NCBI GenBank assembly: GCA_017686895.1
Contig: GCA_017686895.1_4521.1
Direction: 5' to 3' (one strand)
From: a phage
DNA length: 64,000 bases
This document shows, piece by piece, positions 8,015 through 42,301 of this stretch (its first letter is position 1; each line of letters begins with the position of its first letter). Both the position numbers and the translations under genes were made by a program. The notes below the pieces were generated by a model. It had not been told where the DNA came from, did not search any database, and saw only the letters and a program-made list of their open reading frames with translations.

Positions 8015-8910
8015 TAATTATGAATTTAATATATCTTATAACCTTTTATAATCGTGAGATTAAAAATGAATACCCGTGTTATTATATAGGTTCTAAAGTT
8101 TCGTGTCATTTTAATGGAAAGGATATTATTGAAGATTCTACCGGTAAAATATATACCGGTAGTGTTAATTCCTCGTATTCTCCTTTATATAACAGATTAA
8201 TAGACCAAGGCGAATATTCTGTAAAAATTTTAGGCGAAACCACATTAGACCCTAGAAGAATAGAAAGACTATTCCAACTCAATGTTAAAGCCGTTTCAAA
8301 TGAAAAATATTTTAATAAGGCTTATGCTAACGAGAAGTCTAGAATATCAGCTAAAGGATATGCACCGTATAAAAATTTAAAAACAGGCAAAATAGTAAAA
8401 CTTTCTAAAAACGAAATAAACGAAGATTACGTCGGTGTTAGAAAAAATTGCAAATTGTCGGAGAATCATTTAAACGCAATTAGAGAATTTCAAAAAACAT
8501 ATTGGACCAAAGAACGAAGAGAGAAAGTTTCTATTCGTTCTAAAAAAATGTTTAACGATAGAGATTTTGCTTTAAAATTTAAAGATATAATGAATTCTCC
8601 TAATGTTAAAGATAAAATAAAAATATCTAAAACATTGTATTGGTCTAAACCTGAAAATAGAGCAAAGGCCTCTATCGCAGCTTCGAAAAGAAATGCAACC
8701 AAAGAATTTAAGGATAAATTCAGAAAATCTAAAGCTAGAGGTACATGGATATTTCATGAACAAAAATTAAAGGAATTGTGGATTGCTTTAGGAAAACCAA
8801 GTTATATTACATTTAGAAAACATGCAATTCAGCATGGTTTTAATGATGAATCATACCAAGGTGCTATCCGGTCTTGGACAAATTATTATGCTAATAGGAA
8901 ACCTAAATGA
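8011..8910 (+). CDS. homing-endonuclease-like protein (GIY-YIG-like N-terminus, NUMOD-like C-terminal repeats)
   Basis: N-term LIYLITFYNREIKNEYPCYYIGSK resembles GIY..YIG; Lys-rich C-terminal S-x-x-x-K/R repeats; markedly AT-rich relative to flanking genes. Confidence 0.5.
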   Translation: MIIMNLIYLITFYNREIKNEYPCYYIGSKVSCHFNGKDIIEDSTGKIYTGSVNSSYSPLYNRLIDQGEYSVKILGETTLDPRRIERLFQLNVKAVSNEKYFNKAYANEKSRISAKGYAPYKNLKTGKIVKLSKNEINEDYVGVRKNCKLSENHLNAIREFQKTYWTKERREKVSIRSKKMFNDRDFALKFKDIMNSPNVKDKIKISKTLYWSKPENRAKASIAASKRNATKEFKDKFRKSKARGTWIFHEQKLKELWIALGKPSYITFRKHAIQHGFNDESYQGAIRSWTNYYANRKPK

Positions 8911-9593
8911 AACTTAGCCGTGAAACCGTAAATATTCTGAAAAACTTCGCTTCTATTAACTCTGGCATTCTGCTGAGTCAAGGTAAATTTATTATGACTC
9001 GTGCAGTTAATGGCACCACTTATGCGGAAGCAAATATCTCTGATGAAATTGATTTTGACGTAGCACTTTATGATTTGAATAGCTTCTTAAGCATTTTGAG
9101 TCTAGTGTCTGACGATGCTGAAATTTCAATGCACACTGATGGTAATATTAAAATTGCAGACACACGTTCCACAGTTTATTGGCCTGCCGCTGACAAGAGC
9201 ACCATTGTTTTTCCTAATAAGCCAATTCAATTCCCAGTGGCTTCTGTGATTACTGAAATTAAAGCCGAAGACCTTCAACAATTGCTTCGAGTTTCACGTG
9301 GTCTTCAAATTGATACAATTGCTATTACAAATAAAGATGGTAAAATTGTTATCAATGGCTATAATAAAGTTGAAGATTCTGGACTAACTCGTCCTAAGTA
9401 TTCTTTGACTCTTACCGATTATGATGGTTCTAACAACTTTAACTTCGTAATCAATATGGCTAATATGAAAATCCAGCCAGGTAACTATAAAGTAATGTTG
9501 TGGGGAGCTGGTGATAAAGTTGCAGCCAAGTTTGAAAGCTCTCAAGTAAGTTATGTTATTGCAATGGAAGCCGATTCTACTCACGACTTCTAA
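8907..9593 (+). CDS. 45: sliding clamp gp45
   Basis: MKLSRETVNILKNFASINSGILL matches T4 gp45 as recalled; 228 aa. Confidence 0.93.
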   Translation: MKLSRETVNILKNFASINSGILLSQGKFIMTRAVNGTTYAEANISDEIDFDVALYDLNSFLSILSLVSDDAEISMHTDGNIKIADTRSTVYWPAADKSTIVFPNKPIQFPVASVITEIKAEDLQQLLRVSRGLQIDTIAITNKDGKIVINGYNKVEDSGLTRPKYSLTLTDYDGSNNFNFVINMANMKIQPGNYKVMLWGAGDKVAAKFESSQVSYVIAMEADSTHDF

Positions 9594-11648: not shown

Positions 11649-14360
11649 ATGAAAGAATTTTACTTAACGGTTGAACAGATTGGTGATTCAATTTTTGAAC
11701 GTTACATCGATTCTAATGGCCGTGAACGTACTCGTGAAGTAGAATATAAACCATCACTGTTTGCTCATTGTCCAGAAAGTCAGGCTACGAAATATTTCGA
11801 TATCTACGGTAAGCCGTGTACTCGTAAGTTGTTCGCTAATATGCGTGATGCCTCCCAATGGATTAAACGCATGGAAGATATCGGACTTGAAGCACTTGGC
11901 ATGGACGATTTCAAATTGGCGTATTTGTCTGACACTTATAACTATGAAATCAAATACGACCATACAAAAATTCGTGTGGCTAACTTCGACATCGAAGTAA
12001 CATCTCCGGATGGGTTCCCTGAGCCGTCACAAGCAAAACATCCAATTGATGCTATCACCCATTATGACTCAATTGATGACAGGTTCTACGTATTTGATCT
12101 ATTGAATTCTCCATATGGTAATGTAGAAGAATGGTCTATTGAAATCGCTGCTAAGCTTCAAGAACAAGGTGGTGATGAAGTTCCATCTGAAATTATCGAT
12201 AAAATCATTTATATGCCATTCGATAATGAAAAAGAATTGTTGATGGAATATCTCAACTTCTGGCAACAGAAAACTCCTGTCATTTTGACTGGATGGAACG
12301 TTGAGTCATTTGATATTCCATATGTGTATAACCGAATCAAGAATATTTTTGGCGAATCTACTGCGAAACGTTTATCACCACATCGTAAAACTCGTGTTAA
12401 AGTTATCGAAAACATGTATGGTTCTCGTGAAATCATTACATTGTTCGGTATCTCTGTTCTTGATTATATCGACCTTTACAAAAAATTCTCTTTCACAAAC
12501 CAACCGTCGTATTCTCTGGATTACATTTCAGAATTTGAATTGAATGTCGGTAAACTGAAATATGACGGTCCTATTTCTAAACTTCGTGAAAGTAATCACC
12601 AACGATATATTTCTTATAACATTATCGACGTGTATCGTGTATTGCAAATTGATGCTAAACGCCAGTTCATCAACTTGAGTTTGGACATGGGTTATTATGC
12701 TAAGATACAGATTCAATCTGTGTTTAGCCCAATTAAAACATGGGATGCTATTATTTTTAATAGCCTTAAAGAGCAGAACAAGGTGATTCCACAAGGTCGT
12801 TCTCACCCGGTTCAACCTTATCCTGGCGCTTTTGTTAAGGAACCTATTCCAAATCGATACAAATATGTAATGAGTTTCGACCTTACATCTCTGTATCCAA
12901 GTATTATTCGCCAAGTGAATATTAGCCCAGAAACAATAGCAGGAACGTTTAAAGTAGCTCCATTGCATGATTATATTAACGCAATCGCTGAACGTCCTTC
13001 AGATGTGTACAGTTGCTCTCCTAACGGCATGATGTATTATAAAGACCGTGACGGTGTAGTTCCAACCGAAATCACCAAGGTCTTTAATCAACGTAAAGAA
13101 CATAAAGGTTATATGCTTGCTGCTCAACGTAACGGTGAAATAATTAAAGAGGCATTGCATAATCCTAATCTTTCTGTTGATGAACCATTAGATGTTGATT
13201 ATCGTTTCGACTTCACTGACGAGATTAAAGAAAAGATTAAAAAGTTGTCTGCTAAATCTCTTAATGAAATGTTGTTTAGAGCTCAACGTACTGAAGTTGC
13301 AGGTATGACTGCCCAAATTAACCGTAAATTGCTCATCAACTCGCTTTATGGTGCACTTGGCAACGTTTGGTTCCGTTATTACGATTTGCGTAATGCTACT
13401 GCAATCACAACATTTGGTCAAATGGCTTTACAATGGATTGAACGTAAAGTTAATGAATATCTGAATGAAGTTTGTGGTACAGAAGGTGAAGCTTTCGTTC
13501 TTTATGGTGATACAGACTCTATTTACGTATCTGCTGATAAAATTATCGATAAGGTTGGTGAATCTAAATTCCGTGATACCAACCATTGGGTAGACTTCTT
13601 AGATAAGTTCGCACGTGAACGTATGGAACCAGCTATTGATAAAGGTTTCCGTGAAATGTGTGAATACATGAACAATAAACAACACTTAATGTTCATGGAC
13701 CGAGAAGCTATCGCTGGTCCTCCGCTTGGTTCTAAAGGTATTGGTGGATTCTGGACTGGTAAGAAACGTTATGCATTAAACGTGTGGGATATGGAAGGAA
13801 CTAGATACGCTGAGCCTAAACTCAAAATCATGGGTCTAGAGACTCAGAAATCTTCGACCCCTAAAGCAGTACAGAAAGCTCTTAAAGAATGTATTCGTCG
13901 TATGCTTCAAGAAGGTGAAGAATCATTACAAGAATATTTTAAAGAGTTTGAAAAAGAATTCCGTCAATTGAATTATATTAGCATCGCGTCGGTATCTTCT
14001 GCGAATAACATTGCTAAATATGATGTAGGTGGATTCCCTGGTCCTAAATGTCCGTTCCATATTCGTGGAATTCTGACATATAACCGAGCTATCAAAGGTA
14101 ATATTGATGCTCCACAAGTTGTAGAAGGTGAAAAAGTATATGTTCTGCCTTTACGTGAAGGAAACCCATTCGGTGATAAATGTATCGCATGGCCTTCTGG
14201 TACTGAAATCACAGATTTAATTAAAGACGACGTACTTCATTGGATGGACTACACTGTTCTCCTTGAGAAGACATTTATTAAACCACTTGAAGGATTCACA
14301 TCAGCAGCGAAACTCGATTACGAGAAGAAAGCATCTCTGTTCGATATGTTCGATTTTTGA
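11649..14360 (+). CDS. 43: DNA polymerase gp43 (family B)
   Basis: MKEFYLTVEQIGDSIFERYIDSNGRERTREVEY matches T4 gp43; exo motif FDIE and pol motif YGDTDS present; 903 aa, uninterrupted. Confidence 0.95.
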   Translation: MKEFYLTVEQIGDSIFERYIDSNGRERTREVEYKPSLFAHCPESQATKYFDIYGKPCTRKLFANMRDASQWIKRMEDIGLEALGMDDFKLAYLSDTYNYEIKYDHTKIRVANFDIEVTSPDGFPEPSQAKHPIDAITHYDSIDDRFYVFDLLNSPYGNVEEWSIEIAAKLQEQGGDEVPSEIIDKIIYMPFDNEKELLMEYLNFWQQKTPVILTGWNVESFDIPYVYNRIKNIFGESTAKRLSPHRKTRVKVIENMYGSREIITLFGISVLDYIDLYKKFSFTNQPSYSLDYISEFELNVGKLKYDGPISKLRESNHQRYISYNIIDVYRVLQIDAKRQFINLSLDMGYYAKIQIQSVFSPIKTWDAIIFNSLKEQNKVIPQGRSHPVQPYPGAFVKEPIPNRYKYVMSFDLTSLYPSIIRQVNISPETIAGTFKVAPLHDYINAIAERPSDVYSCSPNGMMYYKDRDGVVPTEITKVFNQRKEHKGYMLAAQRNGEIIKEALHNPNLSVDEPLDVDYRFDFTDEIKEKIKKLSAKSLNEMLFRAQRTEVAGMTAQINRKLLINSLYGALGNVWFRYYDLRNATAITTFGQMALQWIERKVNEYLNEVCGTEGEAFVLYGDTDSIYVSADKIIDKVGESKFRDTNHWVDFLDKFARERMEPAIDKGFREMCEYMNNKQHLMFMDREAIAGPPLGSKGIGGFWTGKKRYALNVWDMEGTRYAEPKLKIMGLETQKSSTPKAVQKALKECIRRMLQEGEESLQEYFKEFEKEFRQLNYISIASVSSANNIAKYDVGGFPGPKCPFHIRGILTYNRAIKGNIDAPQVVEGEKVYVLPLREGNPFGDKCIAWPSGTEITDLIKDDVLHWMDYTVLLEKTFIKPLEGFTSAAKLDYEKKASLFDMFDF

Positions 14361-14400
14361 TATAATACCATGGACGGTAAACTAATTAAATGAGAGAAAT

Positions 14401-15036
14401 ATGAAAACTACACCAATCACTATCGCTATTGACGCAATCGTAAAACAAGCTTCTTCTTTGGCTACTATGGCCAAAGTAATTAGTCAAAACCCTGCTCGTT
14501 ATAATGCTATTCTAGAAACTCTTCGACGCCCTGGACTGAGTAATTATGAAAGCCGAGTAATTATTACAGGTGTTGGTAAGAACGCTAATATCGCAACTAA
14601 AGCTTCCGAGACTTTTGCTTCACTAGGTATTCCTAGCATGTATTTGAACACCGGGCATTATTCTCATGGCGACGCAGGGTTTATTGCACCTAATGATGTA
14701 TTAGTTCACATCAGTCGTTCTGGTAAGACTGAAGAAATGATAGGTGTTGCTAAACATCTTCGTATGATTCGTCCTCAGGTTAAACAGATTCTGTTACATT
14801 GTAACCCTGACATTCCGCAAGAATACGAAGCTCTTTTTGATTATACGTTCTGTACAGGCATCGCGGTAGAGGTTGATGAGAATTCTCTGGCTCCGACCAT
14901 GTCCACTACATTGTTGTTAGCGCTTATCGATACGTTTGCTATCAACCTTTCGTCTGAACGTGGATTTACCTCTAATGACTTCCTTAAGTTCCACCCTGGT
15001 GGTGCACTAGGTGCCATGTTACGAGGCGAACAATGA
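14401..15036 (+). CDS. SIS-domain sugar-phosphate isomerase, arabinose-5-phosphate isomerase (KdsD/GutQ)-like
   Basis: Motifs ETFASLGIP, HGDAGF, ISRSGKT resemble KdsD SIS domain; no CBS domains. Confidence 0.7.
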   Translation: MKTTPITIAIDAIVKQASSLATMAKVISQNPARYNAILETLRRPGLSNYESRVIITGVGKNANIATKASETFASLGIPSMYLNTGHYSHGDAGFIAPNDVLVHISRSGKTEEMIGVAKHLRMIRPQVKQILLHCNPDIPQEYEALFDYTFCTGIAVEVDENSLAPTMSTTLLLALIDTFAINLSSERGFTSNDFLKFHPGGALGAMLRGEQ

Positions 15037-15176
15037 AAGCAATAACAATAGGACTTTTACTATTGATGCTTGTCATGACTATCTACTGGAGCTTAACGGC
15101 TCCAGTAATGATTCCGACTCTTATAATCGGATGGATTATGATTGGACTACAAACAAAGTATGAATGCTTTAACTAG
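15033..15176 (+). CDS. small hydrophobic membrane peptide
   Basis: 47-aa ORF hand-translated (MKAITIGLLLLMLVMTIYW...); ATGA overlap with upstream stop; below track cut-off. Confidence 0.25.
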   Translation: MKAITIGLLLLMLVMTIYWSLTAPVMIPTLIIGWIMIGLQTKYECFN

Positions 15177-15217
15177 AATAGTGTACAATACACCTACTTA
15201 CCAATGAGGACCACAAC

Positions 15218-16903
15218 ATGAAAAAAGCTGTTATTCTTGGTGCTGGACTGGCAACTCGTTTGTATCCAATAACGCACCATATTCCTAAGGTGCTTGTTAA
15301 CTATAAACAAGACACTATTCTGAGCAATTTGTATACAATTTATTCTGACCTTGGTGCAGATGAAATTATTGTAGTAGTTCATTCAAAATTTGTTGAAACT
15401 GTTCGAGCTTATTGTGAGCAAGAAGGGTTCAATGTGACTATTCGTACAGTTGATGAAGCGTATGGTTCTGCTTATGCTCTTGCTAAATTATACAAAGATT
15501 TAGATGGCCATAACGTAATTGTTAACTGGTGTGATATTATTCCTGATTTTGGTTCATGGTCTTGGAATGTTAACGCAATCTATGTTAAGGGTGATGAATG
15601 TCGATATAATTTCGATGGTGAAAATATCACTAACGTAGGTTCAACAGGCGGTAATGTTGTAGGAATTTATCAGTTCAAAGACTGGGAATTCTATATGGGT
15701 TCTACTGATGAGGAAATTCATGAATACTGCAAAGGGCGTGATTTCGTAGAATTCCTTTACGGCAGTGCATTCAATAAATCAGAGCTTATGAATCTAATTG
15801 ATTTAGGTGATATGCCTAAACTTGAAAAAGCTCATGAAGTTCGTGAACTTAATCGTAGTTTTAATGCAGTTGAAATTGGTGAAGAAACTGTAACTAAATT
15901 CGCATTAACCGAACAGGGACGAGCTCTTCAGAAAGATGAGATTTCGTGGTATCTTAAAGTGAAATCAGATTCAGTTCCTCAGTTAGTTTCTGTTAATGAA
16001 AATAACTTTGAAATGGAACGCATTAAAGGTAAGCCAGCATTTGAATATATTAAATCCAAATCAAGTCTTGCTCGTCCACAAATTGTTGATGCAATTTTAG
16101 ATGCACTGAAATTCAGCACAGACACTTATTTTGTAAGTCCTGAAACTGTTCGTCGTGATTTCACTAAAGAATTCTATACGAAAGTTATTGATCGTTGTGA
16201 AAGCATTCAACCATTGATTGATTCATTTGGTAAAATCACACATGTGAACTACACTAAGATTGGACGTCTGAAGCCAATGCTGAAACAAGCTTTAGAACAC
16301 CTTATTCGTTATCATAACCGTTCTCAGGGACAGTACTCTGTTATTCATGGTGACCCGAACTTCAGTAATACTATGATTACTGATAACGGCGAAGTCAAGT
16401 TTATCGACCCTCGTGGATATTTTGGCGAAACCAAGATTTACGGGCCAAAATTGTACGATGAAGCTAAAGTGCTTTATGCTGTTTCAGGTTATGATGAATT
16501 CAATGCTAATCCGACCTGGGGACAGTTTACTATTGATGAAACAACTTGTAATGTGACTATTAACATCAATCCATTAATTTACAAATATGGAAAGATGAGT
16601 TCGTTTAACGAGTATCATCATTTGGCGGTGGCAATTATCTGGATTGCATTAGGTGGTTATTTCAAGAATAATCCACTTAAAGCGGTAGCCGCATATTATA
16701 AAGGTATGGAACTTCTGACTAAGCAATTACGCAACATGGGCCGTGTACTTCAAGACGGCTCTATTAGTTATGACGTAGCAGAACCTGTAACGGCTACTCT
16801 GATTACAAAAAATCCTGGTAAATGGGTACTAACTGATAAAGAAACTGGTGTTTCCTATCGTCCAATCGGTGGCGATATCACTCATCAATGGGAACGAATC
16901 TAA
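15218..16903 (+). CDS. bifunctional sugar-1-phosphate nucleotidyltransferase / anomeric sugar kinase-like protein
   Basis: N-term AVILGAGLATRL...PK nucleotidyltransferase signature; C-term HGDPNFSN...IDPRG resembles APH/choline-kinase catalytic loop. Confidence 0.65.
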   Translation: MKKAVILGAGLATRLYPITHHIPKVLVNYKQDTILSNLYTIYSDLGADEIIVVVHSKFVETVRAYCEQEGFNVTIRTVDEAYGSAYALAKLYKDLDGHNVIVNWCDIIPDFGSWSWNVNAIYVKGDECRYNFDGENITNVGSTGGNVVGIYQFKDWEFYMGSTDEEIHEYCKGRDFVEFLYGSAFNKSELMNLIDLGDMPKLEKAHEVRELNRSFNAVEIGEETVTKFALTEQGRALQKDEISWYLKVKSDSVPQLVSVNENNFEMERIKGKPAFEYIKSKSSLARPQIVDAILDALKFSTDTYFVSPETVRRDFTKEFYTKVIDRCESIQPLIDSFGKITHVNYTKIGRLKPMLKQALEHLIRYHNRSQGQYSVIHGDPNFSNTMITDNGEVKFIDPRGYFGETKIYGPKLYDEAKVLYAVSGYDEFNANPTWGQFTIDETTCNVTININPLIYKYGKMSSFNEYHHLAVAIIWIALGGYFKNNPLKAVAAYYKGMELLTKQLRNMGRVLQDGSISYDVAEPVTATLITKNPGKWVLTDKETGVSYRPIGGDITHQWERI

Positions 16904-17289
16904 TGCACCGTGTAGAAAACATGCTTAATCTTTGTTTTGATGTCGATGATTGTATAACAGAGTGGAATAACAATCGTGATTACGTGAACTTCAAACCAGA
17001 CGTCGAAATGGTGTCTGCCATTAATGCCCTGTATGATGCAGGGCATACCATAACGCTTTACACTGCTCGTGGTATGAAGTCAGTAGGTCCTGGTCGTATA
17101 GCAATTGACATTCTCCCAAGTCTGATTCAGAACTTGGCAAACATTGGCTTGAAGTACCATAATTTGCTAACACATAAACCAGTATATGATTGGATTATCG
17201 ACGACAAAGCTATGCGTCCTGACGAATTCAAAGCTCTTATGAATAAAGGCGAATTCGAAACATTTAAATCATATAAACCGAATCTATAA
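16903..17289 (+). CDS. HAD-superfamily phosphatase-like protein
   Basis: FDVDDCIT (DxD motif I), LYTARG, WIIDDK; start taken at ATG overlapping upstream stop. Confidence 0.45.
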   Translation: MHRVENMLNLCFDVDDCITEWNNNRDYVNFKPDVEMVSAINALYDAGHTITLYTARGMKSVGPGRIAIDILPSLIQNLANIGLKYHNLLTHKPVYDWIIDDKAMRPDEFKALMNKGEFETFKSYKPNL

Positions 17290-17335
17290 TAATTTAAGTA
17301 AGACCTGCAAAAACCATCGCATCAATTAACGCGAG

Positions 17336-18505
17336 ATGCAAAAAATGAATACTTTTAAAATCGGAACGAATTTTGATTTAGCTCTTCTTGATAAAATCGT
17401 AGAGCTCAATAAAACCTATCCTAATAGCTTGATAAACGAAGTATATGGCTCTACAAGAGAAATGGCTTTTGTAGCAGCCAGACCTGATTTTAGGCTTCCT
17501 GACGTTGACAAAAAGATGTTAGAAGATTACGTTAAACGTTGTAACGAATTAGGTATTTGCTTTAACTATACACTCAACACGATAAATCCTGGTTCAAAAA
17601 GAGAACTAGTTGAGTGGAAGAAGAAAGCTATTCAGGATTATGTTCAGTATCTTTGGTCAATAGGCGTATGGCGTATTACTATCGCTAACCCTGTTGTTAT
17701 GGAAATTGTTCGTGAAGTCAATAAAGATATTGAGATTGAAGTTTCAACAATTCTACATGTCGATGCGGTAACTCAAATCAAATACTTACATGACCAATAT
17801 AACATCAAAAAGGTCTGTTGCGGAATTCATAAGAACCGTTCAGTTTCTTTCCTGAAGCGTGCAGCAGAGTTTTGCAATAAGAACAATATAATATTTGAAG
17901 TTCTTGTAAATGAGTTCTGTTCTAATGCTGGTAAAGGGTATACAACACATTGTAGTTATCGTGACTCTTGCTATATTTTCCATAGTACTGATGTTACAGC
18001 TGATGATGCTAAATCCTTAAATGGATATCCAATGCAACACTGCATTAAAGCTCGTGATACAGACCCATTTAACTGGTTGAGAACTCGTTTTGTTCGTCCT
18101 CAAGATTTGAAACTTTATAATGATATTGGTATCACTCAATTCAAAGTTTCAGGACGTACAGGTAGCACAGACTACATTTTGAAAGTTCTTGAAGCATACG
18201 CTTCTGAAAAGTTTGAAGGTAATTTGTTAGAACTGTGGAAGCCTTTAGAGACTATTTTCACTCTTGAAAATGAGACTGAGTTTTCACATACAGTAAATAT
18301 TGAAACCTCTTTGTTAGATGGCTTTTTAGAAAAAAGGTGGTTCAGACATCCAGATTTTGATTGTGCTAATGAAATCTGTGGGTCAACGTGTACATATTGT
18401 GAAAGGTATTATAAACGTCAATTATCTAAAAACGGGTTAGCAGAAAACTCCATATCTATTATTGATATAACTAACTCTGATGACGCTTTGAGGTACCCGG
18501 AATGA
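17336..18505 (+). CDS. peptidase-U32-family-like Fe-S protein
   Basis: N-terminal layout and Cys-rich EFCSNAGKGYTTHCSYRDSC segment resemble U32 family; C-terminal CxxxCxxC cluster. Confidence 0.5.
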   Translation: MQKMNTFKIGTNFDLALLDKIVELNKTYPNSLINEVYGSTREMAFVAARPDFRLPDVDKKMLEDYVKRCNELGICFNYTLNTINPGSKRELVEWKKKAIQDYVQYLWSIGVWRITIANPVVMEIVREVNKDIEIEVSTILHVDAVTQIKYLHDQYNIKKVCCGIHKNRSVSFLKRAAEFCNKNNIIFEVLVNEFCSNAGKGYTTHCSYRDSCYIFHSTDVTADDAKSLNGYPMQHCIKARDTDPFNWLRTRFVRPQDLKLYNDIGITQFKVSGRTGSTDYILKVLEAYASEKFEGNLLELWKPLETIFTLENETEFSHTVNIETSLLDGFLEKRWFRHPDFDCANEICGSTCTYCERYYKRQLSKNGLAENSISIIDITNSDDALRYPE

Positions 18506-18741
18506 TTTCTAGAAAAAGTTTTAATTATAAACTTAACGAAGAGATTTTGACTATGAAACTGAACACTAACGAACAAATTCTTAAAAAGGCCCTTATGGGC
18601 CTGTTTGAAACCAAAGCGGCTAAAGTGATTAAAGAACCTGTTCAATTGGAATACTACACTGATGCATTCCTTCATAGTGTTCTTGGAAGTATAGATTCTG
18701 AAGCTTTACGTTATATCAACATTGTCAAGAAATTCAAATAA
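18502..18741 (+). CDS. hypothetical protein
   Basis: 79-aa ORF, ATGA overlap. Confidence 0.3.
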   Translation: MISRKSFNYKLNEEILTMKLNTNEQILKKALMGLFETKAAKVIKEPVQLEYYTDAFLHSVLGSIDSEALRYINIVKKFK

Positions 18742-18764
18742 GCTTTATGAATTGAGTATATAAT
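18741..18764 (+). promoter_or_regulatory. middle-promoter-like element upstream of 42-like gene
   Basis: aGCTTTA box, 11-nt spacer, TATAAT. Confidence 0.35.
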
Positions 18765-18783
18765 AAATTGTATTGAGGTAAAT

Positions 18784-19500
18784 ATGGGAAAACATAACAC
18801 AATGAAATATATCAAAGCCGCAGATTTTCAAACCGCATTTAAAGCAGTCAATCGTGAAATTTTAGAAAACCCCGAATTCGTAACTGATTCTCGTATTGGA
18901 CGTTGTAATGAAATTGGGTCTATGACAGTAGTTGTTGACACTCCATCATCATTCAAAATGACCGACCCACGTATTAACCGCATCTCTTATGAATATGCCG
19001 AAGACTTCTGGAAGTTTATGATTTCTGGTGGTACCAACGCAGAAGAAGCGTTTAAGGCATATCCTAATGTCGCTAAATTTATTTCTAAACCAAAATCAGA
19101 TGTTTTGCCGGCGAACTTCAACACTTTCTATGGTCCTCGCATTGCGGCCCAATTACCAACTCTTCTAAAAGAACTTAAAGAAAAACCTAACTCTCGAAGA
19201 GTTGTGTTCCAAATTCTAGAAAGTTCTGATCAGGCTTTGCTTGATTCGGACGAAACACTTGAATATCCATGTACTGACTCAGTAACTTATTATATTCGTG
19301 ATGGTAAGCTTTATACCCACTGTCATATGCGTTCTCAGAACTGTGCTGTTGTTATGCAGTTGGATTTTTATCTCCAAGGAAAATTACTTCATTATATCGC
19401 TAACGAATGCGGTGTAGAAGTTGGTGATTATACTCATACCATGGTAAGTGCCCATGTGTTTGAACGTGATTTTGATTATGTTAAAGGATTCCTTGACTAA
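18784..19500 (+). CDS. thymidylate-synthase-family pyrimidine hydroxymethylase (gene 42-like dCMP hydroxymethylase)
   Basis: PCTDSV and HCHMRSQN resemble TS-family catalytic Cys and (Q/M)RS motifs; position and dCTPase at 29023 support hmC synthesis; divergent from T4 gp42. Confidence 0.65.
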   Translation: MGKHNTMKYIKAADFQTAFKAVNREILENPEFVTDSRIGRCNEIGSMTVVVDTPSSFKMTDPRINRISYEYAEDFWKFMISGGTNAEEAFKAYPNVAKFISKPKSDVLPANFNTFYGPRIAAQLPTLLKELKEKPNSRRVVFQILESSDQALLDSDETLEYPCTDSVTYYIRDGKLYTHCHMRSQNCAVVMQLDFYLQGKLLHYIANECGVEVGDYTHTMVSAHVFERDFDYVKGFLD

Positions 19501-20399
19501 TGGCTATTTTCCGCGTACCAATCTTGAGTATGCGGTCTTATGAAACTGGACAGTATGCTATCCTTAAGGATGGCAACTTCCAACTTCATTTGCACCGTGC
19601 TAATCCAGGTGATGTGATTACATATCCACGTAATGCATCTGATATTAAAGAATGCGAACGTCTTTTCCCAGAATTTAAGTTTGTTCCATTATGGTATAAA
19701 GATAACGCGTATAACACTCGTAAATATTTCTGGTCTGAAAATGAATTTGTGGTTGATTCATTAATTGCTTATTATGATTGTGATTTTCTAATCACAGATA
19801 TCACCGGATATGACGGCGCTTTTGATGTGGAATTCAATTTCAATATCACTGCAGACCCTAATAAACCACGTTTTTATATTGACGAATTCTTAAAAACTGA
19901 TATGTTGTCGGTTAATCGTTCACTTCAAACTACTGTGTTGAATGAACGTCAAAAAGAAGTGCTGGTTAACGCAGGTGCAGATGGTAATAAGATTATCGTA
20001 ACGCAGAAAGTTATACGTCCTTCCATCATGCAGCGTCTTGTAGGTGATTTGGCTCCTATTCATCTAGATGGTATTTTTCATCCATTTCGAATTAGTGACC
20101 CGTGCTATCGTTTTGAACAAGTGGTTGAATGTGCAATTCAATTAGGCCAACCGCTTTATATAACCGATCCAAATAATAGCTTCGACAGAAATAAGTATCC
20201 TGAAGAAGCATTGATTCGAATTTTTAAACCAACTAAAACTGAGTACTATCAAATTCTTAAAGGACGTCCGAAGATTCAATATTTCGAAAATCCTGAAGAA
20301 GTATTCCATCCAGGTCTTGGTGAGTTCATCTACTTTAATGCTTTAATTTCTTCGCCGTATAATATACCTAAATATGAAGATGTCGTAATCGAGGAATAA
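19500..20399 (+). CDS. hypothetical protein at the T4 beta-gt position
   Basis: 299-aa ORF between 42-like and uvsX; no recognisable motif. Confidence 0.45.
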   Translation: MAIFRVPILSMRSYETGQYAILKDGNFQLHLHRANPGDVITYPRNASDIKECERLFPEFKFVPLWYKDNAYNTRKYFWSENEFVVDSLIAYYDCDFLITDITGYDGAFDVEFNFNITADPNKPRFYIDEFLKTDMLSVNRSLQTTVLNERQKEVLVNAGADGNKIIVTQKVIRPSIMQRLVGDLAPIHLDGIFHPFRISDPCYRFEQVVECAIQLGQPLYITDPNNSFDRNKYPEEALIRIFKPTKTEYYQILKGRPKIQYFENPEEVFHPGLGEFIYFNALISSPYNIPKYEDVVIEE

Positions 20400-20400
20400 A

Positions 20401-20949
20401 ATGGCTAAAATTATTTTAGTAGATGGCCCGGATAATGCTGGTAAAACAACTTTCATTAATGACATAATGGAAATTAGTGAAAGATATGTAAAGATTGATT
20501 TCCCTAAACGAACAGTTGATGGACGTTTCGATGTTAAGTCTCGAAATGAAGTTGGCTGTTTCGAAACTATGTTGAATTATTTAGACCCTACTAAGATTTA
20601 TCTATTAGACCGTGGATATATTAGTAACTGGGTTTATGGACGTATTCGACAAGATGCGGACTCGGTTCTTGACGTTTATGAACAGGATTATGTTCGTCTT
20701 TGCCAAAACCATGATGTGTTCACAATTATTTTAACACGTAACGAAATGACTGAAAGTTTTGAAGACGACCTTATTACTTTGTCTTCATTCGGTTTTAATA
20801 CAGTAATTTCACATTTTGAAGAGTTTGCAATTCATAACGAAATCCAAACGTATCAATTACTTAATCATGATGGTGCTAACAAAGTTATAGGATTTAATGC
20901 AAGCGAACGTAATAATTTGATTACAGAAATCATCAAATGGGCTCGTTAA
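20401..20949 (+). CDS. P-loop nucleoside/nucleotide kinase-like protein
   Basis: Walker A GPDNAGKTT and LDRGY motif resemble thymidylate/dNMP kinase fold. Confidence 0.5.
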   Translation: MAKIILVDGPDNAGKTTFINDIMEISERYVKIDFPKRTVDGRFDVKSRNEVGCFETMLNYLDPTKIYLLDRGYISNWVYGRIRQDADSVLDVYEQDYVRLCQNHDVFTIILTRNEMTESFEDDLITLSSFGFNTVISHFEEFAIHNEIQTYQLLNHDGANKVIGFNASERNNLITEIIKWAR

Positions 20950-21047
20950 GAGCCATTTAAAGTTTTAAATGCTGTATAACCCTTAGTATATAATCATCTT
21001 ATCTTTTAAACATGAGTAAAATATAATGATGCCTATGGAAAAATACA

Positions 21048-22220
21048 ATGTCTGATTTAAAATCTCGTCTGATTAAAGCTTCTACTTCTAAAATGACTGC
21101 AGACTTGACTAAGTCTAAGCTGTTTAATAATCGTGATGAAGTCCCTACTCGTATTCCAATGTTGAATATTGCACTAGGTGGTGCACTGAATGCAGGGTTG
21201 CAATCAGGCTTAACTATTTTTGCTGCTCCTTCTAAACATTTTAAAACGTTGTTTGGGCTGACCATGGTTGCAGCATATATGAAGAAATATAAAGATGCAA
21301 TCTGTTTGTTTTATGACTCAGAATTCGGTGCTTCAGAATCTTACTTCCGTTCGATGGGTGTTGATTTAGACCGTGTAGTTCATACTCCGATTCAATCCGT
21401 CGAACAACTTAAAGTTGATATGACTAATCAGCTTGACGCGATTGAACGCGGCGATAAAGTTATTATCTTTATCGATTCAATCGGTAATACTGCATCTAAG
21501 AAAGAAACCGAAGATGCGTTGAACGAGAAAGTTGTAGGTGATATGTCTCGTGCTAAGGCACTTAAATCTCTTTTCCGTATTGTGACTCCTTATCTGACTA
21601 TTAAAGATATTCCGTGTGTTGCAATTAACCATACTGCAATGGAAATTGGCGGATTGTATCCTAAAGAGATTATGGGCGGTGGTACAGGTATTCTTTATTC
21701 CGCCAACACGGTATTTTTTATCTCTAAACGTCAGGTTAAAGAAGGTACAGAATTGACCGGTTATGACTTCACGTTGAAAGCAGAAAAATCTCGTACAGTT
21801 AAAGAGAAATCTACTTTCCCGATCACGGTTAATTTCGACGGTGGTATCGACCCATTCAGTGGCTTGTTAGAAATGGCAACTGAAATCGGTTTTGTGGTTA
21901 AGCCTAAAGCTGGTTGGTATGCTCGCGAATTCCTTGACGAAGAAACAGGTGAAATGATTCGTGAAGAAAAATCATGGCGTGCTAAAGCTACTGATTGTGT
22001 AGAATTCTGGGGACCTTTGTTTAAACATAAGCCTTTCCGTGACGCAATTGAAACTAAATATAAACTAGGTGCTATCTCTTCTATTAAAGAAGTTGATGAC
22101 GCTGTTAACGACCTTATTAATTGCAAAGCAACAACTAAAGTTCCGGTTAAAACTTCTAATGCTCCGTCTGCAGCAGATATAGAAAACGACCTTGACGAAA
22201 TGGAAGATTTCGATGAATAA
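21048..22220 (+). CDS. uvsX: recombinase UvsX (RecA-like)
   Basis: MSDLKSRLIKASTSKMTADL matches T4 UvsX as recalled; 390 aa. Confidence 0.93.
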   Translation: MSDLKSRLIKASTSKMTADLTKSKLFNNRDEVPTRIPMLNIALGGALNAGLQSGLTIFAAPSKHFKTLFGLTMVAAYMKKYKDAICLFYDSEFGASESYFRSMGVDLDRVVHTPIQSVEQLKVDMTNQLDAIERGDKVIIFIDSIGNTASKKETEDALNEKVVGDMSRAKALKSLFRIVTPYLTIKDIPCVAINHTAMEIGGLYPKEIMGGGTGILYSANTVFFISKRQVKEGTELTGYDFTLKAEKSRTVKEKSTFPITVNFDGGIDPFSGLLEMATEIGFVVKPKAGWYAREFLDEETGEMIREEKSWRAKATDCVEFWGPLFKHKPFRDAIETKYKLGAISSIKEVDDAVNDLINCKATTKVPVKTSNAPSAADIENDLDEMEDFDE

Positions 22221-28934: not shown

Positions 28935-29022
28935 AATATCTCCTTAGTTACCTATTATTTATTACGCTTTATAAAATTAATGTTAGAATTAACTCTCTTA
29001 TACTGAATTGAAAGGAAAAATA

Positions 29023-29544
29023 ATGGCGCACTTTAATGAATGTTCACAACTTATTTCTGGTGTTGATAAAGCAGAAGAAGTTTATTTTAATGCTCTGATT
29101 CACGAAGATAAAGACCCACTTCAGGTAATGCTTGATATGCAGAAATCTTTACAGGTTCGTCTGGCAAATGACAAGCCTGAACATAACAAACATCCTGATG
29201 AATTGGCTACTGCTGGTGATGTTGTTGATTGGCTGCGTAATCAGAAAGATTATATTGATGATGAATTCCGTGAACTGTTGACTTCACTTGGTGGTATGAG
29301 CAATGGTGAAAAAGCCGCCAGCAGTGTATGGAAGCCTTGGAAAGCACAACATGCTGAATATCGAAATCGTCGTATCGATGAACTGTCTCCTGAAGACCAG
29401 CTTGAAATTAAATTTGAGATGATTGATATTCTTCATTTCGTTCTGAATATGTTCCAAGGTCTGGGTCTTTCTGCTGAAGAAATCTTTAAACTTTACTACT
29501 TGAAAAACCAACACAACTTTGAACGTCAGGATAATGGTTACTAA
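29023..29544 (+). CDS. 56: dCTP pyrophosphatase gp56
   Basis: MAHFNECSQLISGVDKA...DPLQVMLDMQ matches T4 gp56 as recalled; start at ATG 29023 rather than track TTG. Confidence 0.9.
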   Translation: MAHFNECSQLISGVDKAEEVYFNALIHEDKDPLQVMLDMQKSLQVRLANDKPEHNKHPDELATAGDVVDWLRNQKDYIDDEFRELLTSLGGMSNGEKAASSVWKPWKAQHAEYRNRRIDELSPEDQLEIKFEMIDILHFVLNMFQGLGLSAEEIFKLYYLKNQHNFERQDNGY

Positions 29545-41200: not shown

Positions 41201-42301
41201 ATGAAAGTTATGTTTATCCCATCTCGTGCAGTCCCATTTAATCCTGACCGTGTACAAGGTGGTCTTGAAGCAGTACATTTAAATGTGTTGAAATATCTTG
41301 TGTCCATCGGTGCTGATATTGATTATATCGGCTTTGATAATGACGTGTTTGGTGATTGGAAAGTTACACACCATCCTGTCGGCCATCTGACTAAATTCAG
41401 TCTAGGTATGAGTTATACTATGGCTCGTAAGATTGTTGAACTAGCCGGCATCCATGAATACGATTTTGTTGTTACTATGGAACCGACTAAACTAACCGTT
41501 CAGGCAATTAAAGACGCAGGTCTCTCTAAAGTTCATAAGAATTTTATGGCAACACCATTTGAACCGGTATCTCGTGGCATTGTTCAAATTTGGGACCAGA
41601 CTATTCAAATTCATAAGAATGGTGGTAAGAGTTATGCTCCTACTAAAGCCTTCCGTGAATTTGAACGCAAATATTGTTATATGACTTCAGGTCTGACTGA
41701 CAAAATTGATTATGATTATTGGCGAGCAAATCCGTTGTTTGAAGCCGAAGATTATCCGGTTATTTGTTTGAATGAGAAACCTGAAGTTCTTCCGGCGACT
41801 GATCTGATTATTAGTGCACAACGTTATGACACTAAAATGCGTCGTACTGATGTTGCTCTTGAAGCGATTAAAGCACTAGGCGAAAATGGTGTAGGATACT
41901 GTCCTAGTAAATGGGCGCCACCGGCTAAGTATCCTGTTATTATTGATGCTCCACATAGTGAAATCATGGAACGTCTTAAAACAGCTAAAGCACTTATCAA
42001 TACGTGTCCTGACACAGGTACGGTAGAGAATAGTTCTATTGAAGCCATCTCTAAAGGTGTCCCTGTAATCCAGTTAGTTTTTAAGGATTATCCTCATGCG
42101 ACATTTGAATACGACCCAGATACTGTGCGTGTAGAAATTGATTCCTCTACTCCTAAGAAAGAAGTAGTTGCGCTTTACACAAAAGCTGTATTAGAATTCA
42201 CTGACACATACGAAGCTCGAGTTAAACGTGCTGAAGCCGTATGGAAGAAGTATAACCGAGATGCAGTTGTTGCGATGTGGGATAAAATCTTCACAGCGTA
42301 A
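41201..42301 (+). CDS. GT-B fold glycosyltransferase (GT4-like), candidate DNA sugar transferase
   Basis: N-term MKVMFIPS...QGGLEAVHLNVLKYL and C-term TGTVENSSIEAISKGVPVI (E-x7-E motif). Confidence 0.55.
   Translation: MKVMFIPSRAVPFNPDRVQGGLEAVHLNVLKYLVSIGADIDYIGFDNDVFGDWKVTHHPVGHLTKFSLGMSYTMARKIVELAGIHEYDFVVTMEPTKLTVQAIKDAGLSKVHKNFMATPFEPVSRGIVQIWDQTIQIHKNGGKSYAPTKAFREFERKYCYMTSGLTDKIDYDYWRANPLFEAEDYPVICLNEKPEVLPATDLIISAQRYDTKMRRTDVALEAIKALGENGVGYCPSKWAPPAKYPVIIDAPHSEIMERLKTAKALINTCPDTGTVENSSIEAISKGVPVIQLVFKDYPHATFEYDPDTVRVEIDSSTPKKEVVALYTKAVLEFTDTYEARVKRAEAVWKKYNRDAVVAMWDKIFTA

Follow-up and report, generated by a model that had tools for sequence, protein, structure and literature searches.

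A thymidylate synthase-fold protein at the gene 42 position of an RB69-like phage is a probable flavin-dependent dCMP 5-hydroxylase

Organization of the locus

The window, the whole stretch of 64,000 nucleotides of phage DNA analysed here, is a segment of a Mosigvirus (RB69-like) genome in which most of the arabosyl-5-hydroxycytosine pathway, as published, is encoded. The open reading frame (ORF) of interest, 18784-19500 on the + strand, has an ATG start with a GAGGT ribosome-binding site 4 nt upstream, encodes 238 amino acids and is judged a genuine gene. The gene order in the window is gp43, a sugar-activation block, ORF 18784-19500, a glycosyltransferase, a kinase, UvsX, gp40 and gp41. In T4 it is 43, imm, 42, beta-gt, uvsX, 40, 41. 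The order between gp43 and UvsX agrees with the initial annotation, which placed the ORF at the T4 gene 42 position. The genes that concern us are the following.

11649-14360, + strand: gp43 DNA polymerase, which would incorporate the modified dCTP analogue; 62% identity to T4 gp43 and 99.7% to RB69 gp43.
14401-15036, + strand: arabinose-5-phosphate isomerase (RB69 gp55, 97% identity); KpsF/GutQ/KdsD NCBIfam match with E about 1e-30, Pfam SIS.
15218-16903, + strand: bifunctional sugar kinase/nucleotidyltransferase for UDP-arabinose (AfhE-like); RB69 gp52 and gp53 fused, 99% identity, role from PMC13326640; Pfam NTP_transferase in the N-terminal part, weak kinase matches in the C-terminal part.
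16888-17289, + strand: HAD-type sugar phosphatase (RB69 gp51, 99% identity; AfhF-like); NCBIfam capsule-biosynthesis phosphatase match with E=4e-13, role from PMC13326640.
17336-18505, + strand: U32-family protein (RB69 gp50); Pfam Peptidase_U32 match with E=7e-11.
18502-18741, + strand: 79-residue ORF (RB69 ORF049c), its start overlapping the stop of the U32 gene.
18784-19500, + strand: probable dCMP 5-hydroxylase/5hodCMP synthase (RB69 gp48, HY126 AfhB); Pfam PF00303, 235 of 238 residues identical to RB69 gp48.
19500-20399, + strand: first DNA arabinosyltransferase acting on 5-hydroxycytosine; RB69 gp46 and gp47 fused, 99-100% identity, role from PMC13326640 Table 1.
20401-20949, + strand: thymidylate-kinase-like nucleotide kinase (RB69 gp45, 99% identity); weak dTMP-kinase P-loop match, label from PMC13326640 Table 1.
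29008-29544, + strand: gp56 dCTPase/dUTPase, removing dCTP and supplying dCMP; 72% identity to T4 gp56 and 96% to RB69 gp56.
41201-42301, + strand: second DNA arabinosyltransferase (RB69 ORF003c); 362 of 366 residues identical to RB69p003, role from PMC13326640 Table 1.

Most RB69 pathway genes have a counterpart here, with identities of 89-100%; one for the dNMP kinase (RB69 gp159) was not located in the window. The glycosyltransferase and kinase/nucleotidyltransferase genes that are split in the RB69 reference are intact here. The arabinosyltransferase at 19500-20399 fills the T4 beta-gt position and is homologous to the RL38J1 gp215-family genes of other phages. The gp56 homologue bears out the earlier suggestion that dC is replaced in this phage, a conclusion that follows from the presence of the dCTPase.

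A scan of 14300-21100 for sigma-70 promoters and terminators gave a site count not above that of shuffled sequence. By eye, a putative T4-type middle promoter (GCTTTA, 11 nt, TATAAT, at approximately 18743-18765) lies 5' of ORF 18784-19500.

Relationship to the thymidylate synthase family

The ORF matches the Pfam thymidylate synthase (TS) profile Thymidylat_synt (PF00303) with an E-value of 1.9e-15 and scores 57 bits where the cut-off is 24. The assignment to the TS family, as first proposed, is therefore not due to chance. The two motifs on which that proposal leaned were both located, PCTDSVTYY at residues 162-170 (nt 19267-19293) and MRSQN at residues 182-186 (nt 19327-19341).

The protein shares 25% identity with T4 gp42 over 218 residues. 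In comparison, gp41, 43, 44, 45, 46, 47, 62, 61, 56, 40, RegA and UvsX reach 62-85% identity with the T4 proteins, and RpbA, a non-replication protein, 44%. In the initial annotation the distance of the ORF from gp42 looked much greater than that of the neighbouring proteins from their T4 equivalents, a view that an identity of ~80 percent to gp42 would contradict; the values above uphold it. Describing the protein as diverged from gp42 is right as to the low identity and needs refining as to descent. Members of the gp42 clade are 54-69% identical among themselves and 19-25% identical to the clade of ORF 18784-19500. The latter is a separate branch of the TS superfamily with different chemistry, and the protein is not an orthologue of gp42. 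A diverged gp42 orthologue is ruled out by the identity values taken with residue differences that run through the whole clade. We refer to this branch, which includes RB69 gp48, DLP3 gp80 and HY126 AfhB, as the 5hodCMP synthase clade.

The active site

Residues were mapped by alignment to Escherichia coli ThyA. The alignment recovers the numbering of T4 gp42 correctly at E60, C148 and D179, which validates the register. Cys163 (nt 19270-19272) corresponds to the nucleophile Cys146 of ThyA and to Cys148 of gp42. Asp194 (nt 19363-19365) occupies the ThyA Asn177 position, Asp179 in gp42, and is associated with cytosine specificity. Glu160 provides an acidic residue at the ThyA Leu143 position. 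Asn186 (nt 19339-19341), within MRSQN, occupies the position of ThyA Asp169 and gp42 Asp171. The alignment to gp42 and ThyA, proposed earlier as a means to identify specificity residues, thus yields a cytosine-type Asp194 and a diagnostic Asn186.

In ThyA, Glu58, Trp80, Asp169 and Gly173 serve in folate contact or methylene transfer. The three folate-contact positions Glu58, Trp80 and Gly173 (Glu60, Trp82 and Gly175 in gp42) are Phe75, Ala97 and Val190 in the ORF. The hydroxymethylases of T4, STP4-a and avDM2 retain Glu, Trp, Asp and Gly where the ORF has Phe75, Ala97, Asn186 and Val190, and these four replacements are invariant across the clade. In a census of 121 homologues (53-100% identity) Cys163, Glu160, Asn186 and Asp194 are also invariant. 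All 121 have Asn at the ThyA Asp169 position, where ThyA and the T4-type hydroxymethylases have Asp. This D169N substitution has been proposed as the diagnostic residue of 5hodCMP synthases (PMC13326640).

Identity as a dCMP 5-hydroxylase

The ORF product is identical to RB69 gp48 (ORF048c, NP_861738) at 235 of 238 positions. The two proteins are of equal length, have the same flanking genes and the same signature residues, and differ by N85D, V107A and T126A, all outside the mapped active-site positions. It is also about 97% identical, over the full length, to AfhB of phage HY126 (PDB codes 9IQC, 9IR2 and 9IQU; He et al.), from which it differs by T17S, E31Q, N85D, E87K, V107A and T126A, none at a mapped catalytic position. 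The PDB titles read 'Monooxygenase dependent on riboflavin with dCMP and FAD' for 9IQC and 'phage HY126 dCMP hydroxylase-AfhB' for 9IQU. An AF2 model of the ORF product (pLDDT 88.7) superposes on 9IQC with a TM-score of 0.94 and an rmsd of 1.7 Å, and a Foldseek search with this model matched TS-family structures.

RB69 gp48 has been characterised (Lee et al., NAR 2026), and published experiments on it and on AfhB, among them crystal structures containing dCMP and flavin, show flavin- and O2-dependent dCMP 5-hydroxylases. Expressed in E. coli with the dNMP kinase it gives rise to 5hodC in DNA, the product is labelled by 18O2, FMN co-purifies with the protein, and RB69 DNA carries arabinosyl-5-hydroxycytosine (PMC13326640). 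PMC13326640 also reports an in vitro reconstitution by He et al. (Nat Chem Biol 2026), in which protein, dCMP, reduced flavin and O2 alone yield 5hodCMP.

On the strength of the near-identity to RB69 gp48 and HY126 AfhB, the signature residues of the active site and the accompanying pathway genes, we consider, with a probability of about 93%, that ORF 18784-19500 encodes a TS-fold dCMP 5-hydroxylase (5hodCMP synthase) that would employ flavin and O2, not methylene-tetrahydrofolate. The enzyme type is already known from RB69 gp48 and HY126 AfhB, and it catalyses the first step towards arabinose-decorated cytosine in phage DNA. The initial annotation allowed that the base might be other than hmC, which fits the 5-hydroxycytosine type indicated by the Asn signature and the likeness to RB69 gp48. 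It also held that the exact base cannot be read from sequence; here the base can be read, from the Asn in MRSQN together with 99% identity to a characterised protein.

Might the protein instead be a functional analogue of T4 gp42, a folate-dependent dCMP hydroxymethylase whose product, hmdCMP, is then arabinosylated? The two proteins have much in common: the fold, the slot between gp43 and UvsX, the catalytic Cys, the acidic residue at the Leu143 position, and dCMP, delivered by gp56, as a substrate selected through Asp at the ThyA Asn177 position. 'dCMP hydroxymethylase' is a common annotation in GenBank records, and in 2018 an hmC base was assumed for RB69 DNA (PMC6024577). We regard this reading as very improbable. 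Identity to gp42 is low, and gp42 Asp171, Glu60, Trp82 and Gly175 are replaced clade-wide by Asn, Phe, Ala and Val. Measurements on the RB69 protein, 99% identical to this one, gave 5hodC as the product and O2 as the source of its oxygen (PMC13326640). Published LC-MS, NMR and 18O2 data contradict a hydroxymethylase, and the PDB titles name a flavin monooxygenase or dCMP hydroxylase. The chemistry is distinct in that gp42 uses methylene-THF and the 5hodCMP synthase flavin and O2; the product of the former carries 5-CH2OH and that of the latter 5-OH, so that in the latter case an ether bond joins the sugar straight to the ring.

Outside the clade, the structure that matches best is likewise that of a hydroxymethylase, the CMP 5-hydroxymethylase MilA (PDB codes 5B6D and 5JNH; Foldseek E about 1e-18, TM-score 0.84, 23% identity). 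MilA is also cytosine-specific but acts on a ribonucleotide, is folate-dependent, yields a hydroxymethylated nucleotide and exceeds the ORF product in length by about 80 residues.

Less probable again is a dCMP enzyme whose physiological product is another or an additional compound, or whose real activity during infection depends on a cluster member, for instance the U32 protein or the 79-residue ORF. Both genes lie immediately 5' and are highly conserved, and the flavin, which is loosely bound, varies in identity between reports (FAD or riboflavin in the PDB title, FMN in PMC13326640). However, RB69 gp48 alone suffices for 5hodC in E. coli (PMC13326640), relatives in Acinetobacter, Pseudomonas and Dhakavirus phages have the enzyme without a U32 gene, and the reconstitution of He et al., so far as it is retold in PMC13326640, argues against any such need.

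An ordinary thymidylate synthase converting dUMP to dTMP, the 'thyA' of many records, can be dismissed, for although the best profile matches are the Pfam and NCBIfam thymidylate synthase models, the NCBIfam scores all fall far under their curated cut-offs (69 against 175 bits, for example), and the protein, which shares with E. coli ThyA the fold, the Cys146 nucleophile, the phosphate-binding Arg126/127/166 and Ser167, Tyr94 and His207, is only 21% identical to it, lacks its C-terminal folate-closing tail and carries the substitutions N177D (Asn177 confers uracil specificity), L143E, D169N, E58F, W80A and G173V.

A route to arabinosylated DNA

In the pathway that we propose gp56 would convert dCTP and dCDP to dCMP. 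Asp194 would select dCMP and Cys163 attack C6, and the activated C5 might then accept an oxygen atom from a reduced-flavin/O2 species; elimination of the Cys would release 5-hydroxy-dCMP. A phage dNMP kinase and the host NDP kinase would carry this to the triphosphate, for incorporation by gp43 as 5-hydroxycytosine instead of C. The two arabinosyltransferases (19500-20399 and 41201-42301) would attach arabinose, one unit or two, by forming an ether bond, with UDP-arabinose supplied by the genes at 14401-17289.

The dCTPase, DNA glycosyltransferases and sugar-nucleotide synthesis genes all accompany the ORF in the window, and the same arrangement of enzyme, dCTPase, glycosyltransferase and sugar-nucleotide genes recurs in RB69, Acinetobacter phage Apostate, Pseudomonas phage PspYZU05 and JS10. 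The window shows no evident flavin reductase; in two T4-like contigs of 351-383 kb a Flavodoxin_2/FMN-reductase gene lies directly 5' of the homologue. Together with the replaced folate contacts, this neighbour gives indirect support to the use of flavin.

The enzyme is frequently mis-annotated as "thymidylate synthase" or "dCMP hydroxymethylase", in several hundred Straboviridae genomes, and the signature of Cys163, Glu160, Asn186 and Asp194 together with the neighbouring genes offers a route to its correct annotation as a dCMP 5-hydroxylase. It is a clear, and already published (2025-2026), example of a folate-dependent fold turned to flavin/O2 chemistry. Arabinosyl-5-hydroxycytosine in DNA bears on restriction and CRISPR evasion and on sensitivity to type IV restriction enzymes, as well as on nanopore sequencing and on how therapeutic phages are handled.

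The adjacent U32-family gene

Pairs of O2-dependent and O2-independent enzymes have parallels in E. coli, namely UbiI/H/F with UbiU/V and TrhO with TrhP. The known roles of the U32 family are O2-independent hydroxylations only, and include hydroxylation at C5 of cytidine and uridine; for the prephenate-dependent chemistry there was no direct demonstration with any family member as of 2024 (PMC10990095).

The U32 protein at 17336-18505 is the best-conserved protein of the cluster. It has two four-Cys groups (Cys195, 206, 212 and 236; Cys343, 348, 352 and 355), and all eight residues are invariant among homologues of 49-81% identity, with a spacing that differs from the UbiU/TrhP motif. The U32 hydroxylases UbiU/UbiV, TrhP and RlhA are typified by a conserved Cys set for an Fe-S cluster. 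Pairwise comparison with E. coli UbiU, UbiV, TrhP and RlhA gave no significant match, leaving the Pfam profile as the sole link, and a PDB sequence search returned no match.

The U32 gene was found in 222 records, only in phages of facultative anaerobes, and is absent from the cluster in the inspected Acinetobacter, Pseudomonas and Rhizobium phages. Its presence in every phage of a facultative anaerobe is ruled out by the Dhakavirus JS10, an E. coli phage with the pathway and no U32 gene. Relatives about 50% identical occur at eight loci in unrelated, DnaE-type metagenomic phages, where they adjoin genes for dCMP deaminase, dUTPase and thymidylate-kinase-like proteins. At four of the eight a homologue of the glycosyltransferase that adds the first sugar to 5-hydroxycytosine lies just 5' of the U32 gene, abutting or overlapping it in three. 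No TS-family gene was found within 8-9 kb of these relatives.

We tentatively suggest, at somewhat less than even odds, that the U32 protein may be an O2-independent, prephenate-dependent pyrimidine C5 hydroxylase, in a two-enzyme system whose aerobic member would be the TS-like enzyme. Some other phage lineages could rely on the U32 protein as their sole hydroxylase. The suggestion draws on the known U32 roles, the host range, the gene neighbours in metagenomic phages, the invariant Cys, the strong conservation and the chorismate mutase genes described below. A literature search, whose coverage stops short of He et al. 2026 and Mahler et al. 2025, found nothing linking U32 proteins, prephenate or chorismate mutase to phage 5-hydroxycytosine. 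If true, the proposal would make 5-hydroxycytosine DNA possible for enterobacterial phages in an anoxic gut, a setting closed to flavin/O2 catalysis, and would account for an O2-requiring modification pathway operating in hosts that live anaerobically. A U32 hydroxylase would then have a substrate at the DNA level, and U32/prephenate chemistry would become open to study in a tractable system.

Chorismate mutase and the 79-residue ORF

A chorismate mutase gene is absent from the window and has been lost in Mosigviruses. The product of chorismate mutase would be prephenate, on which the proposed U32 hydroxylase would depend. In sister phage genera a chorismate mutase gene follows the U32 gene.

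The 79-residue ORF at 18502-18741 has no Pfam match. Yersinia phage phiR1-RT and Serratia phage 92A1 each have its homologue beside a true chorismate mutase gene, so the ORF and the mutase are different genes; with no match to the Pfam chorismate mutase profile CM_2 and both genes side by side in these phages, a decayed chorismate mutase is ruled out. In at least two inspected genomes, those of PWKp16 and Virsaitis27, a CM_2 chorismate mutase lies between the U32 and TS-like genes, and homologues of this mutase, matched in 51 phage records, have TS-like or U32 annotations as neighbours in every one.

Function and origin

The enzyme encoded in the gene 42 slot is already known and characterised, its function settled by the literature on near-identical proteins. 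About 150 Escherichia/Shigella phage genomes match the 6-kb stretch around the open reading frame (ORF) at 98-99% identity, the closest being phage TH12 (99.2%), and the gene content of the window is colinear with that of RB69, the type Mosigvirus. The ORF product matches RB69 ORF048c at 235 of 238 residues and the remaining cluster genes share 89-100% identity with those of RB69. RB69 gp48 produced in E. coli, either by itself or together with the phage dNMP kinase, leads to 5-hydroxy-2′-deoxycytidine in DNA; the 5-hydroxyl oxygen is derived from 18O2 and FMN co-purifies with the protein (Lee et al., NAR 2026, PMC13326640). The 5-hydroxycytosine of RB69 DNA is mono- and di-arabosylated through an ether bond at C5, a finding with which Lee et al. 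correct the 2018 assignment of arabinosyl-hydroxymethylcytosine (PMC13326640). The homologue from coliphage HY126 has been reconstituted in vitro and its crystal structure solved with bound flavin (He et al., Nat Chem Biol 2026, as cited in PMC13326640).

PDB entries 9IQC, 9IR2 and 9IQU share about 97% identity with the window hydroxylase. An AlphaFold model calculated with 50 homologues as input (mean pLDDT 88.7) superposes on 9IQC, entitled "Monooxygenase dependent on riboflavin with dCMP and FAD", with a TM score of 0.94 and also matches 9IQU, "phage HY126 dCMP hydroxylase-AfhB with substrate dCMP". Next among the structural matches is the CMP hydroxymethylase MilA (23% identity), with ordinary thymidylate synthases (TS) behind it. 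GenBank labels for the gene vary between thymidylate synthase, thyA, dCMP hydroxymethylase and hypothetical protein. The practical value of the assignment is that all four are wrong or uninformative.

The ORFs at 15218-16903 and 19500-20399 are single and intact where the RB69 reference has the pairs 52/53 and 46/47, and so back the suspicion, already published, that sequencing errors produced these splits (PMC13326640). Shigella phage JK45 (NC_054940) is assigned to Tequatrovirus in its taxonomy line, yet carries the full Mosigvirus-type arabinosyl-5-hydroxycytosine cluster with a hydroxylase 99.6% identical to that of the window, so the genus label looks inconsistent with gene content.

Genomic context

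Features of the cluster in the window
14401-15036, A5P isomerase, assigned to UDP-arabinose supply
15218-16903, bifunctional kinase/nucleotidyltransferase, assigned to UDP-arabinose supply
16888-17289, HAD phosphatase, assigned to UDP-arabinose supply
17336-18505, + strand, U32-family protein of 389 residues (RB69 gp50; Pfam E=7e-11), immediately upstream of the hydroxylase
18502-18741, + strand, 79-residue ORF starting in the U32 stop codon region (ATGA overlap)
18784-19500, + strand, hydroxylase of 238 residues, ATG start

The initial annotation placed the hydroxylase ORF exactly, and regarded it as a divergent TS-family enzyme at the gene 42 position. Both points are borne out. Pfam Thymidylat_synt matches with E=1.9e-15, far over the gathering score, and the motifs PCTDSVTYY and MRSQN occupy residues 162-170 and 182-186. 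The gene order (gp43, sugar-activation block, hydroxylase, a 299-residue protein, a 182-residue kinase-like protein, UvsX, gp40, gp41) mirrors that of T4 (43, imm, 42, beta-gt, uvsX, 40, 41). The claim that this protein has diverged more than its neighbours also holds: identity to T4 gp42 is 25% over 218 residues, not an ordinary ~80 percent, against 62-85% for gp41, 43, 44, 45, 46, 47, 62, 61, 56, 40, RegA and UvsX. A homologue of the gp56 dCTPase is present as stated, at 29008-29544, and the cautious interpretation as a whole is supported.

A Shine-Dalgarno sequence, GAGGT, lies 4 nt 5′ of the start. Between 18743 and 18783 this ribosome-binding site is preceded by GCTTTA, 11 nt and TATAAT, an arrangement which, judged by eye, resembles a T4 MotA-dependent middle promoter and is putative. 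A generic sigma-70 scan of the region gave no more sites than shuffled sequence.

Active site and clade structure

The window hydroxylase was aligned with E. coli ThyA, three gp42-type hydroxymethylases (T4, STP4-a and avDM2) and five members of its own clade (RB69, Pseudomonas phage PspYZU05, Acinetobacter phage Apostate, Rhizobium phage RL38J1 and Agrobacterium phage Atu_ph04). The register of this alignment, a comparison of specificity residues for which the initial annotation had called, is validated by T4 Glu60, Cys148 and Asp179 aligning with ThyA E58, C146 and N177. The nucleophile (C163), phosphate-binding R138, R139 and R183, together with S184, Y116 and H224, are ThyA-like. ThyA N177 is replaced by Asp194, which confers cytosine specificity, and L143 by Glu160. 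Three ThyA residues that, by established TS enzymology, contact folate or act in methylene transfer, E58, W80 and G173, are kept in gp42-type enzymes whereas here they are Phe75, Ala97 and Val190. Missing too is the C-terminal stretch with which ThyA closes over folate; in gp42 that stretch is likewise short. ThyA D169 corresponds to Asn186, the last residue of the MRSQN motif, and asparagine at this position has been proposed as diagnostic of 5hodCMP synthases (PMC13326640). Across 121 database homologues (53-100% identity), seven residues show no variation: C163, E160, N186, D194, F75, V190 and L193.

A fast-diverging gp42 can be dismissed, since the enzymes of the window, RB69, PspYZU05 and Apostate share 68-99% identity among themselves and only ~24% with gp42-type proteins; values against the Pootjesviridae enzymes and ThyA are ~31% and ~21%. 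The TS-like family thus splits by identity into separate clades, and on these comparisons the hydroxylase is a non-orthologous replacement within the superfamily.

Proposed pathway and flavin supply

Given 72% identity to T4 gp56, the window dCTPase would convert dCTP and dCDP to dCMP. The conserved TS machinery suggests that the hydroxylase binds dCMP and that Cys163 adds to C6, after which C5 would be oxygenated by a reduced-flavin/O2 species, the nature of the intermediate being conjectural. O2 as the oxygen source and bound flavin are documented for the RB69 protein (PMC13326640) and, through citation there, for that of HY126. The product, 5hodCMP, would be phosphorylated by a phage dNMP kinase, as shown for RB69 gp159 (PMC13326640), the gene for which was not located in the window. 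The polymerase gp43 would then insert the 5-hydroxycytosine analogue and the transferases encoded at 19500-20399 and 41201-42301, the latter 99% identical to RB69 ORF003c, would attach arabinose from UDP-arabinose. The isomerase, bifunctional enzyme and phosphatase would provide that donor, roles assigned in PMC13326640 and, by way of it, in He et al.

A thymidylate-kinase-like protein (20401-20949, + strand; RB69 gp45) is found alongside the hydroxylase and transferase genes in all lineages examined, jumbo contigs and RL38J1 included. Phosphorylation of 5hodCMP is already credited to the canonical gp1-type dNMP kinase, which leaves this second kinase without an obvious substrate.

In two T4-like contigs of 351-383 kb a Flavodoxin_2/FMN-reductase-type gene (8162-8668 in one locus, 8492-8992 in the other) lies directly upstream of the hydroxylase homologue, with transferase-like and kinase-like genes downstream as in the window. 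The arrangement resembles an operon for a two-component flavin monooxygenase and provides further genomic evidence for flavin use by the hydroxylase. No such reductase gene was evident in the window.

The U32 protein

RB69 gp50 is given only as a "sugar or heterocycle reductase", without discussion (PMC13326640). U32 proteins are known biochemically only for O2-independent, prephenate-dependent hydroxylations: UbiU/UbiV in the anaerobic synthesis of ubiquinone, TrhP for tRNA 5-hydroxyuridine and RlhA for 23S rRNA 5-hydroxycytidine, although direct hydroxylase activity had not been demonstrated for any of the family as of 2024 (PMC10990095). The window protein is a candidate O2-independent, prephenate-dependent pyrimidine C5 hydroxylase. 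The gene is present in 222 phage records, the hosts all Enterobacterales or Shewanella and only facultative anaerobes. It is missing from otherwise equivalent clusters of one Acinetobacter, one Pseudomonas and one Rhizobium phage inspected and also from Dhakavirus JS10, marking it as accessory. Across genera it is the most conserved cluster protein (82-86% identity against 42-80% for the others).

Metagenomic phage contigs that encode DnaE-type polymerases, among them a 466-kb one, carry a large set of relatives 48-58% identical, and eight cysteines (195, 206, 212, 236, 343, 348, 352 and 355) are invariant throughout. Just upstream in four of eight such loci is a homologue of the glycosyltransferase for the first sugar on 5-hydroxycytosine (reference: window 19500-20399 / RL38J1 gp215), which abuts or overlaps the U32 gene in three. 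One locus also has A5P isomerase and kinase/nucleotidyltransferase homologues; dCMP deaminase, dUTPase or DCD, thymidylate-kinase-like, TAGT-like and GLF genes are neighbours in various loci. None of the eight has a TS-family gene within the 8-9 kb examined on each side. On our reading, the candidate U32 hydroxylase would serve enterobacterial phages as a backup to the O2-dependent TS-like enzyme when oxygen is lacking, and would replace that enzyme in some other phages.

This reading carries substantial caveats. A role in sugar chemistry would also fit, one metagenomic locus having a KdsA-like gene and an epimerase. Pairwise comparison of the phage protein with the four E. coli U32 paralogues gave nothing significant, and its cysteine spacing differs from theirs. 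The papers that could be searched, two key ones not among them, contain no connection between phage DNA hydroxylation and U32 proteins, prephenate or chorismate mutase.

Gene neighbours point to hydroxylation. Chorismate mutase forms prephenate, the oxygen donor of U32-dependent hydroxylations, and in both genomes inspected, Klebsiella phage PWKp16 (5161-5406 of the locus) and Erwinia phage Virsaitis27 (5158-5502), a genuine gene for this enzyme (Pfam CM_2, E about 1e-10 to 1e-11) lies between the U32 and TS-like genes, a placement that favours the U32 hydroxylase reading. Homologues occur in 51 phage records, with hosts in Klebsiella, Serratia, Yersinia, Enterobacter, Edwardsiella, Erwinia, Pectobacterium, Providencia, Morganella, Kosakonia, Shewanella and Escherichia; among the matches listed they adjoin genes annotated thymidylate synthase or peptidase. 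The mutase gene is missing from the window, where the equivalent slot is 18502-18783, and from other Mosigviruses, which have lost it and kept the 79-residue ORF. A family search with this ORF, conserved in 163 phage records, gave no match. It is not itself the mutase, as Yersinia phage phiR1-RT and Serratia phage 92A1 carry both genes, and is thus a separate, further partner of the U32 gene.
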